This document shows positions 3,080-29,682 of a DNA stretch of 41,040 nucleotides, piece after piece; position 1 is the stretch's first letter; each line of letters begins with the position of its first letter. The DNA is taken from sequence record PQ850606.1. One strand, given 5' to 3'. Position numbers and translations under genes: made by a program. This stretch comes from Escherichia phage HeidiAbel_Bas97. The notes beneath the pieces are model-generated. The model was not told the DNA's origin and did not search any database. It saw only the letters and a program-made list of their open reading frames with translations.

Positions 3080-4635
3080 TGAAACTGTGGCCATTTACCA
3101 GAAATAAGCCTGCCGAACAGGCACAACAGCCGCGCACGCGGCGTTTACCGCTTAACCGCCTGGCTTCCCGCATGTTTACGGGTGCCAGTGTTGACCGGTT
3201 GGGCACCGCGTGGGGCACGCAGCCGCTGACGGCTGACGAGGTAATCAACAAAAATCAACGCATCCTGGTGGCCCGTTCCCGCGAACAGGCCGCCAATAAC
3301 GACTATGCCAAAAAATTCCTGCGCCTGTGCCGCAACAATATTGTTGGGCCAAAAGGCGTTCTGTTGCAGGCCAAAAGCACTGACAACACCGGAAAACTGG
3401 ACACCCTGGCCAACGAAGCCATTGAAACTGCCTTCGATAAGTGGGGGCACAAGTCAAACTGCGACGTGACCGGGAAGTTATCCTGGCGCGCCATCCAGGC
3501 TGCGTGCATCAACAGCGCGGCCAAAGATGGTGAATTCTTCGTGCGCCTGGTGTTCGGTGCCGATGCAGGGCCGTGGGGCTTTGCGCTGCAACTGCTGGAC
3601 CCGCAACGCTGCCCTGTAGACATGGTTGAAGATCGTCTGAATAACGGAAATTTCATTCGCCAGGGCATCGAGTTTAACCGCTACGGGCGGCCTGTTGCGT
3701 ACTATTTCAGCACGGTTGATGAATCCGATGATAATTACCGTTGGTCCGGGCGTGATTTCGTGCGCATTCCCGCTGATGAAATCCTTCACGGCTTCCTGGA
3801 TGACATGGTGGGGCAGAAACGCGGCCTGCCGTGGATGGCCACCAGCCTGTTTCGTATGCGCCACCTGGGTGGCATGGAAGAAGCCGCGCTGGTCAACGCG
3901 CGAGCCGGTGCCAACAAAATGGGTTTCATCGAATGGGATGAAAATTCCGCTGGTCCTGAGTTTGAAGATGATGACGAACTGATCATTGACAGTGAACCGG
4001 GTGAATTCCAGGTGCTGCCACAGGGCGCACGCGTCAAAGACTGGTCGCCACAGTACCCCAACGGCGAATTTGCCGTGTTCACCAAACAAATGCTGCGCGG
4101 CATGGCATCGGGTATGGGCGTTCCGTATAATGACCTTGCCAGCGACCTGGAAGGCGTCAATTTCAGTTCAATCCGCCAGGGAACGCTAGACAGCCGCGAA
4201 AACTGGAAAGAATTGCAGGAATGGTTGATTGAAAACCTGCATCAACCCGTTTTTGAAGCATGGTTGCCGCGTGCCCTGCTTGCTGGTCGCATCACCGTTA
4301 AAGGCCGCAGCCTGAAACCGGAACGCATCGACCGCTACAGCGATATTGAATGGCAGCCACGCCGTTGGGCCTGGATTGACCCGTCATCTGACGTGGCAGC
4401 CGCTGAACGGTCCAAAAACAACATGCTGCAATCGCCTGGCCGCATCATCCGTGAAGGTGGCAGCGACCCTGACACCGTTTGGAAGGAAACCGCCAGCGAC
4501 GTGGCGCGCATGATTGAGGCGTACACGCAGCACGGCATCAGCCGCGAAATGGCGGAAAAACTGGTCATGCAAAGCATGGGCATGGACAAACAACTGTTAA
4601 TGGGGCAGCAAAATGCAGAAAAACCCGCTGAATAG
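3079..4635 (+). CDS. Portal protein (lambda gpB-like)
   Basis: Recalled similarity to lambda gpB; ATG at 3079 overlaps the upstream stop; the track ORF starts 42 nt further upstream in the same frame. Confidence 0.85.
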   Translation: MKLWPFTRNKPAEQAQQPRTRRLPLNRLASRMFTGASVDRLGTAWGTQPLTADEVINKNQRILVARSREQAANNDYAKKFLRLCRNNIVGPKGVLLQAKSTDNTGKLDTLANEAIETAFDKWGHKSNCDVTGKLSWRAIQAACINSAAKDGEFFVRLVFGADAGPWGFALQLLDPQRCPVDMVEDRLNNGNFIRQGIEFNRYGRPVAYYFSTVDESDDNYRWSGRDFVRIPADEILHGFLDDMVGQKRGLPWMATSLFRMRHLGGMEEAALVNARAGANKMGFIEWDENSAGPEFEDDDELIIDSEPGEFQVLPQGARVKDWSPQYPNGEFAVFTKQMLRGMASGMGVPYNDLASDLEGVNFSSIRQGTLDSRENWKELQEWLIENLHQPVFEAWLPRALLAGRITVKGRSLKPERIDRYSDIEWQPRRWAWIDPSSDVAAAERSKNNMLQSPGRIIREGGSDPDTVWKETASDVARMIEAYTQHGISREMAEKLVMQSMGMDKQLLMGQQNAEKPAE

Positions 4636-6661
4636 CATCATTGGGGCCGAATTTACCCGCAAATCTGACAGCAAAACGCTGCCTGATTTCAACAAAGGCG
4701 GGCTGGTGCGCACTATGGAAGTGCGCAAGTTTGACACCGAAAAACGCACCGTAGAACTGGCTTTTTCATCCGAAATCGAGGTTGAACGCTGGTACGGTAT
4801 CGAAATTCTGGACCATTCGCCGGAAAGCGTGCGCCTGGACCGTCTGCGTGACGGTGGGGCGCTGCTGGTTGACCACGATTGGACTGACCAGGTGGGCGTT
4901 GTTGAATCCGTCAGCATTGACGCTGACCGCCGGGGGCGGGCCGTGGTGCGCTTTGGCCGAAGTGCACGCGCTGACGAGATTTTCCAGGACATCGTTGACG
5001 GCATTCGCAAGCATGTTTCCGTGGGCTACCGCGTGTTAGCGGCCAAGCTACAGGAAACGCGTGACGAGTGGCAGGATGTCTATCGCATCACTGAATGGGA
5101 ACCTTACGAAATTTCAATTGTGAGTGTTCCCGCTGACGCCAGCGTTGGCGTTGGGCGTGCGTTTGACAAACCCCAAGAAGAACAACGCGGCAGCAAATCC
5201 GATACTGCGGGCACCGTAGAGGTTCCAGCACCAACAAATATTGCATCTGAGGGCATTAGAATGGAAAAAATTCTGCGCGACGCAGCCGGTAACCTGGTGC
5301 GCGCAATGGTAGACGAAAAAGGCAACATCACGCAGGTTCTGGAAATGCTGGAACGTGCTGGCGATGATGCGCGCAACGCTGAACAGCGTGGCCGTGAAGC
5401 CGAAAAGGCGCGTGTTCGTTCCATCACTGAAATGGGCGAGAAGTACAACGCACGTGACCTGGCTTTGAAAGCTATTGGCGAAGGCACCACCGCCGAAGAT
5501 TTCCAGCGTTCCTTGCTGGACCACCTGAACAAGCCGAAAGACCCGGCACAACCGGCTGATGGCACCCGTTCCGGCAGCAAGCCGCTGTCAGAAATGCCGT
5601 CCAGCGTGATTGGTATGTCTGACAAAGACATCCGCCGCTATAGCATTTTCAACGTGGTTCGCGCGCTGGCTAACCCGAACGATGCAGCCGCACAGCGTGC
5701 CGCAGCGTTTGAAATCGAATGCAGCCACGCAGCGCAACAGCAGTATGGCCGCAGTGCAAAAGGCATCCTGATCCCCGACGATGTTCTGCGCGCATTCAAC
5801 GCTGGTGGCGCACCGAACACCCCGGCAGGTGCACAGACCGGTTCCAACCTGGTTGGCACTGACTTTATGGCCAGTTCGTTCATCGACCTGCTGCGCCCGC
5901 GTACCACCATCATGCGCCTGGCGCGTACTATGGGCGGCCTGGTTGGTAACGTTGAAATTCCGAAACAGACTGGCGGCGCTACTGCCTACTGGATTGGTGA
6001 AGGTGATGACGCAACCGAAACCACGCCGACCATCGGCCAGCTTGGTTTGTCACCGAAAACCGTTGCGGCTTACACCGACATTACCCGCCGCCTGCTGATG
6101 CAATCCACCCCTGACGCGGAAGCTATCGTGCGCGGTGACCTGGTGGCAGCTATCGCGCAGGCGATTGATTACGCTGGTTACTACGGCACCGGCACCAGCA
6201 ACCAGCCGCTGGGCCTGGCGAACTACACCGGCATTAATGCGGTAGACTTCGCAGCAGACAACCCGACTTATGCGGAACTGGTGCAGATGGAAACCGAAAT
6301 TGCGGCAGACAACGCAGACGTGAACAACATGGCGTATGTGTTGAACGCGCGTGGCCGTGGTGCAGCGAAAACCACGCCGAAGTTTGCCAGCGGTTCTTCC
6401 GTTGCTGACGCTGGCGTGATTTGGGAGCCGGGCAACACCCTGAACGGTTACCGCGCCGAAGTTACCAACCAGGTGCAGGATGGTGACGTGTTCTTTGGCA
6501 ACTTCGCTGACCTGGTGGTTGGTATGTGGGGCGGCCTGGACATGACGGTTGACCCGTACAGCCTGAGCAAATCCGGCGGCCTGCGCATCGTGGTGTTCCA
6601 GGACGTGGATTTTGCGGTGCGCCGCGTTGAATCCTTCGCGCTTGGCCGCAACGCAGAATAA
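4613..6661 (+). CDS. Prohead protease, scaffold (delta-like) and major capsid protein (HK97 fold) in one ORF
   Basis: N-terminal ~190 aa resemble an HK97-type prohead protease; central charged coiled-coil segment; C-terminal ~400 aa resemble an HK97-fold capsid protein; internal in-frame ATG at 5261 with a GAGGG RBS. Confidence 0.75.
   Translation: MQKNPLNSIIGAEFTRKSDSKTLPDFNKGGLVRTMEVRKFDTEKRTVELAFSSEIEVERWYGIEILDHSPESVRLDRLRDGGALLVDHDWTDQVGVVESVSIDADRRGRAVVRFGRSARADEIFQDIVDGIRKHVSVGYRVLAAKLQETRDEWQDVYRITEWEPYEISIVSVPADASVGVGRAFDKPQEEQRGSKSDTAGTVEVPAPTNIASEGIRMEKILRDAAGNLVRAMVDEKGNITQVLEMLERAGDDARNAEQRGREAEKARVRSITEMGEKYNARDLALKAIGEGTTAEDFQRSLLDHLNKPKDPAQPADGTRSGSKPLSEMPSSVIGMSDKDIRRYSIFNVVRALANPNDAAAQRAAAFEIECSHAAQQQYGRSAKGILIPDDVLRAFNAGGAPNTPAGAQTGSNLVGTDFMASSFIDLLRPRTTIMRLARTMGGLVGNVEIPKQTGGATAYWIGEGDDATETTPTIGQLGLSPKTVAAYTDITRRLLMQSTPDAEAIVRGDLVAAIAQAIDYAGYYGTGTSNQPLGLANYTGINAVDFAADNPTYAELVQMETEIAADNADVNNMAYVLNARGRGAAKTTPKFASGSSVADAGVIWEPGNTLNGYRAEVTNQVQDGDVFFGNFADLVVGMWGGLDMTVDPYSLSKSGGLRIVVFQDVDFAVRRVESFALGRNAE
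5165..5181 (+). promoter_or_regulatory. Conserved 17-mer GACAAACCCCAAGAAGA, copy 2
   Basis: Exact match; 80 nt upstream of the internal in-frame ATG at 5261. Confidence 0.45.
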
Positions 6662-22818: not shown

Positions 22819-22895
22819 TGGCGACCCCTACAGGAATCGAACCTGTAACCTACAGCTTAGAAGGCTGTCGCTCTATCCGGTTGAGCTAAGGGGCC
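22819..22895 (-). tRNA. tRNA-Arg (anticodon UCU), 77 nt with encoded CCA
   Basis: Reverse complement folds by hand into a full cloverleaf: 7-bp acceptor stem with one G-U pair, D arm, anticodon loop CUUCUAA, T-loop TTCGATT, discriminator G and CCA. Confidence 0.85.
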
Positions 22896-23199: not shown

Positions 23200-24411
23200 A
23201 TGCTGACAGAACGCCAGATACAGGCGGCCATGCGCGCCGTGACCAGTGAAACAGTGTTGAACGATGGGGCCGCAGGACGTGGCAGCGGAAGCCTGCGCCT
23301 GCGCATCCGTGCCGGGGCCAAAGGGCCGAACGCTACCTGGCAGGCCGTCTGGTGGAACGCCGGAAAACAGACCAGCAAGGCGCTTGGCCGCTACCCGGAT
23401 TTGAGCCTGGCCGACGCGCGCCGGAAGTATGAAACCGAAGTGCGCGACGTGCTGACGGCTGGCCGCGACCCAAACGCAGTGGTTGCAATGGCCGAAAGCC
23501 CGACCATTGAAAAACTGTTCCAGGCTTACATCCAGTACCTGCGCGACAAAGAGACGGCGACCACCCACACATCAGAACATCTGCTGCTGACCGGCAAATA
23601 CAACGCCGCTGATTTGCTTGGCCGCAACACCATTGCGTCAACCATCGAACCTGCCGACATCGCCAACGTGCTGGCCAAAGGCGTGAAGCGTGGCGCACGC
23701 CGAACCACCGACATGCAGCGCACCGCCATGATGGCCGCATTTAATTGGGCGATGAAATCGACACACGATTACACGCAGGAAAACCGCATGGATTGGGGGC
23801 TGAAATATAACCCTGTTGCAGCCGTTCCGCGCGACCAGGCAGCCAACCGCACGCTGGATAGGAACCTGTCAGCGGAGGAAATGAAGCACGTATGGGATAA
23901 CGCGCCGGAACAAAGCGGCGACGTGATGCGCCTGGTGATGTGCACCGGCCAGCGCGTCATTGAAGTCATGCGCATAGCTGGTGCTGACGTGGACCTGAAA
24001 GCCAGGCTGTGGACGATGCCAGCCAGGAAAACAAAGGGCCGCAAGCATACCCACATGGTGCCGCTGACCACGCAGGCGGTTGACATCCTGACCACGCTGA
24101 TTGACCTGTACGGTGACGGTTACCTGTTCCCTGCCCGCGCTGGCGCTAAGGGTGACATTATCGGAATCCCAAGCGTCAGCCGTGGTGCCAGCCGCATGGC
24201 AGGCATTAAGCCGTTCACCCCGCGCGACCTGCGCCGCACCTGGAAGTCACGCGCCGGTGACGCTGGCATTGACAGGTTCACGCGTGACCTTATCCAGCAG
24301 CACGCGCAGACTGACACCGGCAGCAAACATTATGACCGGTTTGACTACCTGCCGCAGATGCGCGAGGCGATGAATAAATGGGAAATATGGTTGCGAAATG
24401 CTATAGCGTGA
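23200..24411 (+). CDS. int: Tyrosine-type site-specific integrase (P4-like, with N-terminal arm-binding domain)
   Basis: 403 aa; N-terminus matches the P4-type integrase arm-binding pattern (LTERQIQAA...LNDGAAGRGSGSLRLRIRAGAKGPNATWQAVWW...LGRYPDLSLADARRK); C-terminal catalytic region with R, H..H and Y; adjacent to a tRNA. Confidence 0.85.
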   Translation: MLTERQIQAAMRAVTSETVLNDGAAGRGSGSLRLRIRAGAKGPNATWQAVWWNAGKQTSKALGRYPDLSLADARRKYETEVRDVLTAGRDPNAVVAMAESPTIEKLFQAYIQYLRDKETATTHTSEHLLLTGKYNAADLLGRNTIASTIEPADIANVLAKGVKRGARRTTDMQRTAMMAAFNWAMKSTHDYTQENRMDWGLKYNPVAAVPRDQAANRTLDRNLSAEEMKHVWDNAPEQSGDVMRLVMCTGQRVIEVMRIAGADVDLKARLWTMPARKTKGRKHTHMVPLTTQAVDILTTLIDLYGDGYLFPARAGAKGDIIGIPSVSRGASRMAGIKPFTPRDLRRTWKSRAGDAGIDRFTRDLIQQHAQTDTGSKHYDRFDYLPQMREAMNKWEIWLRNAIA

Positions 24412-24634
24412 TGTAGAGTTATTTTAAGCAGACGGTGGAGGCGCTCCACGCCGGAGACGTAACCGGCACGCACCGTGATGCGCTTTTGCGAACACTTCCA
24501 ACCCCCAGGGTGTTACCTCGCAACGTGAAAGCGCATCGCAGTGCGACATTCGCACAGACTGGAACTTACCCGACAAGTGATTCCAATAAGGCAGGTGATC
24601 TGTATCTCGCATCACAGCGTCACGTGACACAAAA

Positions 24635-24655
24635 CCCCGCTTAGGCGGGGTTTTT
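24635..24655. terminator. Bidirectional rho-independent terminator between int and the convergent leftward operon
   Basis: AAAA-CCCCGC-TTAG-GCGGGG-TTTTTCTTT. Confidence 0.6.
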
Positions 24656-24661
24656 CTTTGG

Positions 24662-25345
24662 TCATTCGTCGCTGCTTTCGTCATCGCCTTCCGGCGTCAT
24701 CGCGCCATGTTCCGGGCAGTGAGGCGGCCCGACTTCCAGCCATTTTTGCGTGACCCGAACCGTGTAGCCACATTCCTGGCATTCACACTTTTTCAGCCTG
24801 GTGGTTTGCTTAGGCTTCGCTGTGGACGCGCCGCCGACCGGTGCAACTTCGATTTCTTCCCCTTCCCCATCGTCACCGCCTTCATCCAGGCCAATGCGCA
24901 GGCGTGGCACCTTTATGGACATGCCACGGTCAAACGTCAGCTTGGCGTGTGGCATCGGGCCAAGTTCGTCCAGGAACGGTTTGACGTACTCTTTGAATTT
25001 CTCGCCAGGCGTGGTGGCGGTCATCGGTCCATTCAGGCCAACAGCCTTGCACACCGTGGCAAACGCACCCTTATGGCCGCAGTCAAAACCAACGGTGGCG
25101 TGCGTCAGTTCGTGCCACAGGTGGTTTGCTACCAGGTACGGTTCCACCTGGTCTGGCATGATGAAAATTTCAAACGTGTTGTCTGAACTGCACTTGCTGT
25201 GCCAGCACTGTGCCGCCGTACTGGAACGCGCGCCGCTGCTGCAAAAGCCAACCGACACGCGGAATTTAGGCATTTCGTAGCCGAATTCTTTAAAGCGCGG
25301 CGCAAACTTCGCCGCCAAAGCATTTAACCAACCTTCACGGTCCAT
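24662..25345 (-). CDS. SprT-like zinc metallopeptidase domain protein with C-terminal zinc ribbon
   Basis: HExxH motif (WHELTHA) in the N-terminal domain; acidic Gly-rich linker; C-terminal CxxC...CPEH zinc-ribbon-like motif. Confidence 0.5.
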   Translation of the reverse strand: MDREGWLNALAAKFAPRFKEFGYEMPKFRVSVGFCSSGARSSTAAQCWHSKCSSDNTFEIFIMPDQVEPYLVANHLWHELTHATVGFDCGHKGAFATVCKAVGLNGPMTATTPGEKFKEYVKPFLDELGPMPHAKLTFDRGMSIKVPRLRIGLDEGGDDGEGEEIEVAPVGGASTAKPKQTTRLKKCECQECGYTVRVTQKWLEVGPPHCPEHGAMTPEGDDESSDE

Positions 25346-25443
25346 ATATATTTCCTCGCAATGCGTTTAAACGTGTTTAGATTATACAAAGCCAAAGAAA
25401 AACCCGCCATAACGGCGGGCTGATTACTTAGAATGATTTGGAA

Positions 25444-27773: not shown

Positions 27774-27942
27774 TATTGTTGCCCTTAAATGATTTATTGA
27801 ATTTCAGGCCAGCAAACACAATCAAACTGACTGGCCACAGAAGTGCACAAACAAAAGTTACAAAGTAATCCCGCTTATCCTTGTGGAACCAGCACCCATA
27901 GAAAAAGAGCACCAGAACCAGATAGATCAGGGCGTCCATCAC
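27760..27942 (-). CDS. Small hydrophobic membrane protein (hypothetical)
   Basis: 60-aa ORF with two hydrophobic segments, translationally coupled between the exonuclease and Sak4 genes. Confidence 0.3.
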   Translation of the reverse strand: MMDALIYLVLVLFFYGCWFHKDKRDYFVTFVCALLWPVSLIVFAGLKFNKSFKGNNNGSN

Positions 27943-29057
27943 ACCGCACCCAACAGGTGTTGATTCTTGTTGGCGTGCCAGCCTGGCAGGCTGATGGTCT
28001 GGATTTTATCGCCGTAGCCAGGCCAAACACCGGTGCGCACGCATTCAGCGTACACGCGCAAATCGTGCTGGTACTGCGCGCGGCCTAAATCCACGCTTTC
28101 AGAATCCAGAACGTAGACACCAACGCCATAAGGTGGCTTCTTCTCAACCGCGATAAACACAAACGCTTTTGGGCGCTTGCCAGTGGCCTGCTGCACGCCG
28201 TCCAGGTAGTAGGCTGCCTGCACGTCATAGCGCCAGTTGGCGATTGATTTTGCGAACCCTTCCGGGCTGGCATCTTCGGTGGTTTTCAAATCCACAATCA
28301 CGTTGTCATCGCGCCACCAGTCTGGACGGCAGCGGCACAGAACGCCGGTGGTTGCATCAATCCAGTAAACAGACTTTTCCGCTTCTCCAGGGCAACTGGT
28401 CAGCAGTGAGCCAGCAGCAGGGTGCGCATGAACTGCGGCGGCCATCGCGTGCAACTGGTCCCACGTTTCCGGCGTCAGCACCATGCGGCCTGGGTTGTTT
28501 TCGGTCCATTCTGCCAGCACGTCTGACCACAGGGTGACTTTTACGCCGTTGCTGCGCAGCAGGTATGCCAAATCGTGACGGCTGCCGCTGGTAGGTAGCA
28601 GGCCGGTGCGGCTTTCGTTCGCCTTCTCGATAATGGCTTTCAGTTCCGCACCCTTCATGGCTTCCAGTTCACTGGTTTCACCGGTCCAGCCTGTGAATTC
28701 CATGATGCGTGCAATCAGTTCGTTTTTGTTTCCGCTGGTGGGCAGCTTCGCCAGGCGGCCTTCGTTCAGCTTGTTGACCATTTCCACCAGCACTTCGCGG
28801 TCATCAATGGCATCAGGCACATCAGAACGGCGCAGCGCCAGGCAATACGTATCTGCGAACACATCCGGTTCTAAAATCAGCGCGTGCGCTGCGGTGCCGA
28901 GTTCCTGTGCTGCTGTTGGCGTGCGGTCATTCGCAGCCGTCACAACAGCGTGGTAGTGCATCGGGCTGCGGTGCACCAAATCCAGGCCAGATTTACTGAT
29001 GCCTGGGCCGCCGTGGTATTCAGCGTTTGGAATACCTTCGTAAACTCCTGGTTTCAT
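27939..29057 (-). CDS. PD-(D/E)XK exonuclease (RecE/YqaJ-like)
   Basis: Start MKPGVYEGIPNAEYHG with GAGG RBS; catalytic-like IVDLKTT; the track ORF extension to 29114 is rejected. Confidence 0.7.
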   Translation of the reverse strand: MKPGVYEGIPNAEYHGGPGISKSGLDLVHRSPMHYHAVVTAANDRTPTAAQELGTAAHALILEPDVFADTYCLALRRSDVPDAIDDREVLVEMVNKLNEGRLAKLPTSGNKNELIARIMEFTGWTGETSELEAMKGAELKAIIEKANESRTGLLPTSGSRHDLAYLLRSNGVKVTLWSDVLAEWTENNPGRMVLTPETWDQLHAMAAAVHAHPAAGSLLTSCPGEAEKSVYWIDATTGVLCRCRPDWWRDDNVIVDLKTTEDASPEGFAKSIANWRYDVQAAYYLDGVQQATGKRPKAFVFIAVEKKPPYGVGVYVLDSESVDLGRAQYQHDLRVYAECVRTGVWPGYGDKIQTISLPGWHANKNQHLLGAV

Positions 29058-29113
29058 TATGTTACCTCGCAATTGACTGATGATATAACGTGATACAGCG
29101 TGAAGATGAAGCA

Positions 29114-29143
29114 AGTATAATTAAGTAATATCGTTGCTGTCAA
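29114..29143 (-). promoter_or_regulatory. Putative sigma70 promoter for the leftward recombination operon (TTGACA, 18-nt spacer, TATACT on the minus strand)
   Basis: Near-consensus hexamers about 50 nt upstream of the exonuclease ATG, overlapping the repressor gene stop. Confidence 0.4.
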
Positions 29144-29682
29144 ATCTTTCTGTTCAGTCCAATTACTTTGCCGATTACTTCCAGATCGTCATCTGTGCAG
29201 ACTTCATCAAATTTATACAGTTCGTTGTCACAAAGGACGCGCACATTGCCATCAATCCTGCGCTGACACCTTACCATCCTGGCTTCGCCATTCATTGCAA
29301 TGGCGTATATCCCGGCGTTGTCTATCCACGAAATTGACTTGTCGATGACACAGCTATCACCATTCAACAATGTGGGTTCCATCGAGTCAGTCACGACCTT
29401 TACAACGGCCAGGCTTTCCGCTGGCAGGCCGTAAAAAGCCGACATTGTTGACATCACGCCGTCATTGAAAAAAAGCGCGTTTGCAGTGACTGCGGTTGCG
29501 CTCAGTAATTCTTCTTTACGGCAACCAATAGCGTCAGCCAGCCTGTCGAGAATGGGCAGCGTTACGCGCTGCGGTTCACGTTCCCACCGGCTGACCGTCA
29601 CGGCGGTGGTTCCGAGCTTTTCAGCCACGTCCTGCAACGTCATTCCTGCCGCCTGGCGGCGCTCCCTTATGCGGTTTGGCAT
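29140..29682 (-). CDS. CI-like repressor (HTH-XRE plus S24 LexA-like peptidase domain)
   Basis: N-terminal HTH (MTLQDVAEKLGTTAVTVSRWE); C-terminal S24-like domain with Ser in DSMEPT and a downstream Lys; divergent from the rightward operon. Confidence 0.8.
   Translation of the reverse strand: MPNRIRERRQAAGMTLQDVAEKLGTTAVTVSRWEREPQRVTLPILDRLADAIGCRKEELLSATAVTANALFFNDGVMSTMSAFYGLPAESLAVVKVVTDSMEPTLLNGDSCVIDKSISWIDNAGIYAIAMNGEARMVRCQRRIDGNVRVLCDNELYKFDEVCTDDDLEVIGKVIGLNRKI

Follow-up and report, generated by a model that had tools for sequence, protein, structure and literature searches.

A candidate small RNA family of Jilinvirus phages, encoded downstream of the integrase gene and complementary to the exonuclease VIII start region

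Several described RNAs share features with the element reported here. In phage lambda, sib/tI acts in cis on the int mRNA through RNase III, and OOP and the sar RNA of P22 are cis-encoded antisense RNAs overlapping their targets. Phage T4 RNAs C and D are stable RNAs of about 140 nt found in a tRNA cluster. MicL and DapZ are type I 3′-UTR-derived sRNAs, which are host-encoded, Hfq-dependent and shorter than the RNA considered below, and in S. aureus the RNAs RNAIII and RsaE mask Shine-Dalgarno (SD) sequences by means of C-rich loops. The c4 RNA of phages P1 and P7 is associated with tRNA-type processing. This phage RNA acts in trans, masking a ribosome-binding region with its loops, and constitutes a second immunity layer over the protein repressor (PMC8198154). 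Among phages of the genus Jilinvirus, some have an intact integrase gene together with one for a CI-like repressor, no lysogeny having ever been seen, and others lack the two genes through loss (bioRxiv 10.1101/2024.09.12.612763). Among the papers found on Jilinvirus-type phages, none mentions the RNA described here.

The locus described here lies in a 41,040-nt stretch of phage DNA, analysed over its whole length and called the window. Its central feature is an inverted repeat downstream of int, for which a role as the helix of a phage sRNA directed at a ribosome-binding site is proposed below.

Position and architecture of the element

The window phage is a Jilinvirus (Iiscvirinae), and the records nearest to it are Salmonella phage PT1, Escherichia phages ep3, ECOO78, ECO1230-10 and Alux-21, Enterobacter phage Arya, Klebsiella phage KA2-1 and Serratia phage MQ-4. 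The element lies in the 250-nt gap between int and an intrinsic terminator, the presence of which agrees with an earlier reading made from the sequence only. The features of the surroundings are as follows.

22819-22895, minus strand: tRNA-Arg(tct), called by ARAGORN and also the sole gathering-level Rfam match in the window
23200-24411, plus strand: tyrosine integrase gene (int), stop codon 24409-24411
24391-24396, plus strand: −35-like hexamer TTGCGA, within the last codons of int
24414-24419, plus strand: −10-like hexamer TAGAGT, 2 nt past the int stop codon
24427-24660, plus strand: predicted primary transcript of about 234 nt, its 5′ end placed from the promoter position and its 3′ end being the terminator U-tract
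24631-24659, plus strand: intrinsic terminator with a 10-bp G+C-rich stem (24631-24654) and a U-tract, abutting the stop codon of the SprT-like gene (24662)
24662-25345, minus strand: SprT-like gene, convergent with int, start codon 25345-25343
27939-29057, minus strand: exonuclease VIII gene, at the head of the leftward block
29140-29682: CI-like repressor gene, at the head of the leftward block

Beyond the SprT-like gene the minus strand carries ssb, helicase and other genes, and the leftward early operon opens with exonuclease VIII, just downstream of the CI-like repressor gene. A near-consensus promoter driving this operon (TTGACA-18-TATACT, 29114-29143, minus strand) overlaps the repressor stop codon; in ep3 and KA2-1, which have no repressor, a different strong promoter (TTGACA-18-CATAAT) is joined to the same exo start region. 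The sequence CGTTTAAAC is over-represented in the window, with 5 matches against 0.31 expected (5 being attained by 0 of 100 shuffles), positions 2093, 8061, 23091 and 25364 among them. One copy is upstream of int and another, a palindromic one, just upstream of the SprT-like start region; the latter is kept in nearly all relatives having the SprT-like gene, as a one-base variant in KA2-1. CGTTTAAAC may be an operator. The tRNA-Arg(tct) gene, divergent from int, is a possible attP partner, although its identity to the tRNA-Arg genes of E. coli is only about 80-84%.

A promoter motif composed of TTGCGA, TTGCAG or TTGCGC, a 17-nt spacer and TAGAGT, TAGGAT or TACAGT was found in 11 of 11 homologs, the int-less phages and the metagenomic locus L135 included. 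The copy in the window (TTGCGA-17-TAGAGT) matches the sigma70 consensus at only 8 of 12 positions, for which reason it was not called by a generic consensus scan; the case for a promoter is accordingly one of conservation. The int stub retained by the int-deleted phages always contains the motif, and in L135 the int remnant is approximately the promoter alone, behind an unrelated gene. In the more distant L199, Persinger and L193, TTGCAG/TTGCGC-17/18-TAnnnT is similarly placed, ahead of unrelated RNAs. The RNA thus appears to be served by a conserved sigma70-like promoter within the end of int, and the location of this promoter in the stub would account for the persistence of “integrase pseudogene” stubs in lytic relatives. 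At the other end, the terminator stem is followed by TCTTTGG and shows compensatory changes in L130 and L131.

The sequence-only reading had pointed to two decamers, GATGCGCTTT and AAAGCGCATC, able to pair across about 40 nt. The repeat and its pairing stand, but the coordinates given (24475-24484 and 24525-24534) were 2-3 nt too low, since GATGCGCTTT is located at 24477-24486 and AAAGCGCATC at 24528-24537, and the arms are longer than 10 nt: the decamers are the centre of two 18-nt arms (24469-24486 and 24528-24545), 89% complementary and separated by 41 nt. When G·U pairs are counted the resulting helix, P1, comprises 21 pairs with one single-nucleotide bulge per strand (C24474 and A24540). 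The 16 matches in 18 arm positions were attained by 0 of 300 dinucleotide shuffles of the intergenic region (shuffle maximum 15), and a census of the entire window identified P1 as the sole inverted repeat of such quality with a loop of 3-80 nt. The predicted 234-nt transcript showed a minimum free energy (MFE) of −92 kcal/mol, with z = −4.6 against shuffles, and the fold z-scores obtained ranged from −4.5 to −4.6. The inverted repeat is most likely the main stem of a conserved non-coding RNA, a chance hairpin being disfavoured. The parts of this RNA, and the reading frames that cross it, are listed below.

24435-24467, plus strand: variable leader with two short 5′ hairpins (24435-24449 and 24450-24467), where relatives insert hairpin modules of about 130-350 nt or a tRNA
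24469-24490, plus strand: 5′ arm of P1, including GATGCGCTTT
24491-24523, plus strand: apical region of P1, with helix H2, a C-rich loop and the putative anti-SD seed
24491-24495 and 24510-24514, plus strand: small helix H2, in the apical region
24496-24509, plus strand: C-rich loop UUCCAACCCCCAGG, in the apical region
24511-24523, plus strand: putative anti-SD seed UGUUACCUCGCAA, unpaired in the MFE and centroid structures
24524-24545, plus strand: 3′ arm of P1, including AAAGCGCATC
24541-24555, plus strand: hairpin H3 (GUGCGA-CAU-UCGCAC), competing with the lowest 5 bp of P1
24561-24584, plus strand: hairpin H4, with conserved loop CCGACAA (24570-24576)
24587-24608, plus strand: invariant single-stranded segment UAAGGcAGGUGAUC-ug-UAUCUC, complementary to the 16S rRNA 3′ tail
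24435-24644 (plus strand), 69 aa; 24424-24684 (minus strand), 86 aa; and a third of 34 aa (minus strand): open reading frames crossing the region

Conservation in related phages

A core of about 150 nt (24464-24611) is carried by 11 enterobacterial Jilinvirus-like phages at 74-99% identity. In PT1, ep3 and ECOO78 the core is 98-99% identical, compared with 90-95% across the flanking 4 kb. The similarity of the relatives starts abruptly at about position 24466 and extends to the terminator, whatever sits upstream. What precedes the core is an intact int in PT1, KA2-1, Alux-21, MQ-4, L130 and L131, an int stub fused to a tRNA fragment in ep3, ECOO78 and ECO1230-10, an int pseudogene in Arya (also described in PMC5754474), and another gene in L135. 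In the five int-less members (ep3, ECOO78, ECO1230-10, Arya and L135) the element is kept at 89-99% identity together with a promoter-bearing int stub. In ep3, ECOO78 and ECO1230-10 (L002, L003 and L005) all that is left of int is its last ~50 nt, joined to a 3′ fragment of tRNA-Arg, and a single deletion may thus have removed the gene.

Conservation peaks in three unpaired segments and not in the stems: GGUGUUACCUCGC, the H4 loop CCGACAA, and the segment that reads UAAGGcAGGUGAUC-nn-UAUCUC in the alignment. The longest invariant alignment block, GGUGUUACCUCGC / GGTGTTACCTCGC, lies at the tip of P1, where it is unpaired. No homolog, MQ-4 included, departs from AGGTGATC and TATCTC, and the KA2-1 and MQ-4 variant of the 3′ segment reads GGAGGTGATCC.

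Fold conservation in related phages was, beside RNA-seq coverage, a check that the sequence-only reading had proposed, with the lack of a transcript and of conservation as the refutation, and the element is clearly conserved. With the hand-drawn structure (P1, H2, H3 and H4), standard pairs occupy 95% of cells, compared with 26-53% after shifting the 3′ partners 1-3 columns out of register. Double changes in the close family were limited to two pairs, G-C/A-U in P1 and A-U/C-G in H3, and the double-change measure was not above shuffles (375/500) in this family, which is too shallow for a formal covariation test (effective number of sequences 1.21, few independent lineages); many more covarying pairs are added if MQ-4 is taken to be a homolog. 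In KA2-1 and Arya, H3 shows the A-U to C-G exchange and G·U changes; the H4 stem differs in KA2-1, Arya and MQ-4, with the loop unchanged. When MQ-4 is aligned by the model, 14 of the 16 P1 pairs are retained although both partners differ at 7 positions. Double changes likewise leave H3 and the inner portion of H4 paired, and the CCGACAA loop and AGGUGAUC..UAUCUC are identical. Across the helices, 56 G·U cells at 11 positions were counted against 5 A·C cells at 2 positions, and pairing is therefore maintained on the plus strand only. Such a bias favours a plus-strand RNA over a DNA palindrome or a minus-strand RNA.

Between promoter and core, Alux-21 carries on the same strand an Rfam tRNA match of 40.9 bits (L007, 2645-2718), and ep3, ECOO78 and ECO1230-10 carry extra long hairpins of about 130-270 nt relative to the window. 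With a same-strand tRNA and hairpins inserted at one point, the unit behaves as a stable-RNA transcription unit with exchangeable modules. By eye, the Alux-21 tRNA has the anticodon loop CUCAUAA; it was not called by ARAGORN. The extra modules were located in L002 (ep3) at 2100-2500, in L003 (ECOO78) and in L005 (ECO1230-10) at 2380-2850. The first is a long stem, CACAAC-GGUAAGAGCA/UGCUCUU-CC-GUUGUG, which in MQ-4, with compensatory changes, is also the equivalent of P1; the second is a domain closed by GUUGUGGUG...CACCACAAC, or by GUUGUGGUU/AACCACAAC in ECO1230-10. This second closing stem recurs between two tRNAs (4563-4700) in the unrelated contig L214 (IMGVR_UViG_3300035670_000279), where, within 4491-4890, the hairpin CUUCC-ACCCGACAG-GGAAG and GGAGGTGATCCTATCTC come immediately after a tRNA and a tRNA-Pro. 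In this 53-kb viral contig an H4-type hairpin and the 3′ module thus stand directly after tRNA-Pro, which hints at a separate function for the 3′ module.

A covariance model of the 150-nt core recovered 11 full-length members at 140-180 bits and the distant MQ-4 at 21 bits, and nothing further among 80 loci (421 kb) collected via neighbouring proteins. Among metagenome loci anchored on the SprT-like protein, one new member (L135) was found, along with many relatives having unrelated RNAs or none; in L136, L206 and L207 the terminator directly follows int, without the RNA. The region gave no blastn match in 5,426 complete E. coli genomes or in PLSDB plasmids, and a 20-base pattern scan of GTDB representative genomes gave 0 matches. 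A 14-base pattern scan of viral contigs gave more than 120 matches, almost all due to chance, and a stricter pattern retrieved the known members and L214 only, besides a false match in a coding region (L212). A protein-anchored GTDB scan yielded a single Caballeronia contig, bearing a different RNA. This contig (L193, Caballeronia fortuita, 42,413 bp) was the only GTDB match for the SprT-like protein and is as large as a complete phage genome; downstream of its SprT-like gene an RNA-like segment about 180 nt long, with a sub-threshold isrK match (26 bits), is flanked by TTGCGC-17-TAAAAT and a terminator. In the more distant L132, L133, L137 and L138, the space between int and the SprT-like gene is filled over 250-600 nt by densely packed GNRA-type hairpins, of which CAGCCGGAAAGACGGCA is an example, and contains a T-arm-like GGTTCGATTCC; these elements showed no sequence kinship to the core and no Rfam match.

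No Rfam 15 family matched the element at gathering threshold. In E-value mode, region 24380-24700 gave only terminator-driven sub-threshold matches (rimP, RsmY, Leu leader), and ten related loci gave tRNA matches only, apart from the isrK match in L193. The C4 covariance model (RF01695) had no match in the region at E ≤ 10. ARAGORN called no tRNA or tmRNA in the element, and Rfam tRNA/tmRNA models found none in 24380-24700. The RNA would represent a new sRNA family, absent from Rfam and carried in GenBank as “hypothetical protein” or without a label.

The sequence-only reading had proposed a small RNA or a structured 3′ UTR, and both descriptions find support: the element occupies the position of an int 3′ UTR, has a conserved promoter-like motif and a terminator of its own, and is kept where int is lost. 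On the computational evidence we consider it quite probable that it is a structured and independently expressed non-coding RNA.

Start-region complementarity and the proposed function

The window was searched for complements of the RNA, and two translation start regions are relevant here.

29055-29072, minus strand: proposed main target, the exonuclease VIII initiation region, with UUGCGAGGUAACA (29072-29060), UA, and then AUG (29057-29055)
25354-25361, minus strand: possible secondary target, the SprT-like initiation region, UUGCGAGG, with 8 nt complementary in the window

The seed (24511-24523) is complementary to UUGCGAGGUAACA at 13 of 13 positions, and this is the sole 13-mer among the complements of the RNA in the window. 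UUGCGAGGUAACA is the SD region of exonuclease VIII and ends 3 nt ahead of the AUG; in the GenBank record of Arya, GAGG at the exo start site is annotated as the RBS. Among 57 putative start regions in the window the exo start ranked first, with 13 nt against at most 8 elsewhere. A 13-nt match was attained by 1 of 500 shuffled RNAs (p approximately 0.002), and the corresponding value for the match of KA2-1 taken alone was about 0.04; both p-values are optimistic, since an anti-SD-like sequence matches SD regions more readily than a random one. RNAduplex energies were weakly better than those of shuffles (p 0.01-0.1), so perfect-match lengths were used instead.

The complementarity between seed and exo start amounts to 13 nt in the window, Arya, ep3 and ECOO78 (L204) and to 11 nt in KA2-1, L198 and L208, and the sequence immediately 5′ of the site is unrelated between the ep3/KA2-1 and window/Arya groups. 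For the SprT-like start the match to the seed extends to 9 nt in KA2-1 and, as read by eye, to 11 nt in Arya (UUGCGAGGUAA). TGCGAGG has three occurrences only in the window, one in the RNA gene itself and one at each of the exo and SprT-like starts. When the 51 start regions annotated in ep3 were ranked, the best two were exonuclease VIII and ep3_0018 (CGAGGUAACACCC), both with 13 nt and the same seed, and the next reached 9 nt. The second cassette is also present in ECOO78 and KA2-1, and the top three starts of KA2-1 (exo, gp52 and SprT-like) all match the seed. This portable cassette, AAAACGAGGTAACA(CCC), stands ahead of different small genes in each phage with 10-13 nt complementary to the same seed; its sites are 11579-11591 in L211 (ep3), about 5216 in L204 (ECOO78) and 39601-39610 in L217 (KA2-1). 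In the distant phage Mano the corresponding position is occupied by another RNA, which contains an 11-nt complement to Mano's own exo start, in a GC-rich genome giving several other 11-12-mers by chance.

Seed and target showed no co-variation: the exo start region of PT1 has diverged to only 8 complementary nt, and the KA2-1 seed has lost 2 nt without compensation. MQ-4, Persinger and L199 gave no convincing match to a start region. An alternative explanation for the unchanging seed may be intramolecular: UUACCU(C) can form 6-7 bp with (G)AGGUGA, which is invariant in the 3′ segment. Two other candidates were rejected: a second, intragenic target (24484-24499 against 28248-28263, 15/16), of which neither position nor complementarity is conserved, and the ACACCCTGG-type matches to the C-rich loop, which are located in coding sequence and reflect codon usage.

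The best reading of these comparisons is that the RNA belongs to a new family of trans-acting antisense sRNAs that would repress translation. A sigma70-type promoter in the last int codons would give rise to a plus-strand RNA of about 230 nt ending at the terminator shared with the convergent SprT-like gene. The long stem P1 would display an unpaired C/U-rich tip, with GGUGUUACCUCGC(AA) as anti-SD seed, and this seed would pair with the ribosome-binding site of exonuclease VIII and, more weakly, with other GAGGUAAC start regions, such as that of the SprT-like gene and that of a small gene in ep3, ECOO78 and KA2-1. Pairing would block binding of the 30S subunit and lower translation. We infer that the RNA is made, that its 5′ end lies where the promoter places it, that pairing occurs in vivo and that repression is the effect. 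To the reading of P1 as the helix of such a phage sRNA, with its seed masking the exonuclease VIII ribosome-binding site, we assign a probability of roughly 0.5; that antisense control of exo and related start regions is the main job of the RNA is held more tentatively, at slightly under even odds. The RNA gene outlasts all int and repressor deletions at near-identity, and the ribosome-binding site that its seed matches is the first one encountered downstream of the gene for the CI-like repressor. The match between seed and exo offers a concrete handle on how Jilinvirus phages might tune their early recombination/replication operon.

The main rival to the antisense reading is a ribosome-directed or other role, in which a stable-RNA cassette would address the ribosome or a host factor and not phage mRNAs. 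UAAGGcAGGUGAUC could act on the 16S 3′ tail as a 30S sponge, as a STAB-SD-like stabiliser, or as an SD:anti-SD mimic paired with UUACCUC; alternatively, the RNA could be an anti-defence decoy processed alongside tRNAs. AGGUGAUC..UAUCUC and the CCGACAA loop are the only features common to all members, MQ-4 included, they recur right after tRNA-Pro in L214, and no conserved ORF lies behind the 3′ segment. In MQ-4 the GUUACCUC motif is relocated to a different hairpin loop, so both motifs travel together. In KA2-1 and MQ-4, GGAGGUGAUCC is an 11-nt complement of the 16S 3′ end. Against these points, the single occurrence of AGGTGATC in the window is, by itself, not beyond chance, we know of no precedent for stoichiometric titration of 16S rRNA by a phage RNA, and the 13-nt matches to specific start regions are left unexplained. 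This role is judged unlikely.

Less likely still is a purely cis-acting structured 3′ UTR of int, without an independent RNA, in which P1 would set int mRNA stability as an RNase III or exonuclease-blocking structure, on the model of lambda sib/tI retroregulation. The element does stand directly after the int stop codon and ahead of the terminator, P1 is a long, near-perfect helix of the type cleaved by RNase III, and the loci where the terminator directly follows int (L136, L206 and L207) make the element an optional add-on to int. Retention of the element with its promoter-bearing stub in the int-less phages, the tRNA within the unit of Alux-21, and the location of the most conserved bases outside the stem, unpaired, argue against it. 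Doubtful to a similar degree is a modular “translation-initiation mimic” RNA that would engage both 30S subunits and GAGGUAAC start regions and reprogram initiation during infection; anti-SD-like loops would be borne by an array of long hairpins open to exchange, among them P1, the X/Y modules found in ep3, ECO1230-10 and ECOO78, and even tRNAs, and an invariant 3′ module would provide a near-complete complement of the 16S rRNA 3′ tail.

A DNA-level site beside int (attP arm, replication origin, packaging site or palindromic protein-binding site) is very improbable. attP usually adjoins int and the region lies at a point of convergent transcription, but a DNA cruciform or dyad-symmetric site would not need the one-strand pairing revealed by the G·U excess, the element persists in int-less phages, and the probable attP partner, tRNA-Arg(tct), is on the opposite side of int. 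No attP core identical to host sequence was found in the 5,426 E. coli genomes or plasmids and no tRNA-like segment in the region; its absence from these genomes, PLSDB and the GTDB scan leaves no attB-like match. Arya packages circularly permuted, terminally redundant DNA (PMC5754474), so no cos site is expected. A small protein can be practically dismissed: the 69-aa and 86-aa ORFs are mechanically present and a 45-aa CDS is annotated in the variable leader of PT1, but, in line with the earlier opinion that no ORF is convincing, indels of 1-2 nt (not multiples of three) among the homologs disrupt all three crossing frames, no ORF is conserved, neither of the longer two has a PHROG match, the minus-strand ORF would traverse the terminator and overlap the SprT-like gene, and substitutions keep base pairs and not codons.

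Comparison with known systems

As a structured RNA beside int, or as an antisense RNA controlling early or lysogeny genes of a temperate phage, the Jilinvirus RNA resembles sib, OOP and sar. It differs from them in lying about 4.4 kb from its proposed target and in being kept without int; because it outlives int, its behaviour is not that of a cis-only, sib-like element. With MicL and DapZ it would share a promoter within the 3′ end of the upstream coding sequence, a terminator shared with the upstream mRNA and a seed that is the most conserved part, whereas in the Jilinvirus phages deletion of the upstream gene can leave the promoter stub and the RNA in place. The likeness to RNAIII and RsaE consists in unpaired C/U-rich motifs (AACCCCC, UUACCUC) at the tips of stable hairpins, complementary to the SD sequences of several mRNAs; sequence, host and context are unrelated, and the Jilinvirus RNA also bears an SD-like segment of its own. 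T4 RNAs C and D are comparable in their co-location with tRNAs, which are found in or beside the unit in Alux-21 and L214, but no homology was detected and the T4 RNAs have no proposed antisense seed.

The functionally closest known system would be the c4 RNA of P1/P7 (immI), likewise a trans-acting phage sRNA with exposed loops directed against the ribosome-binding region of a phage operon, the likeness being a functional analogy only. The c4 RNA is about 77 nt long and shares an operon with its target, which it precedes, whereas the Jilinvirus RNA is about 230 nt long and sits at the opposite end of the genome segment, where it faces the target operon's 3′ end, and its proposed target is a recombination exonuclease instead of an antirepressor.
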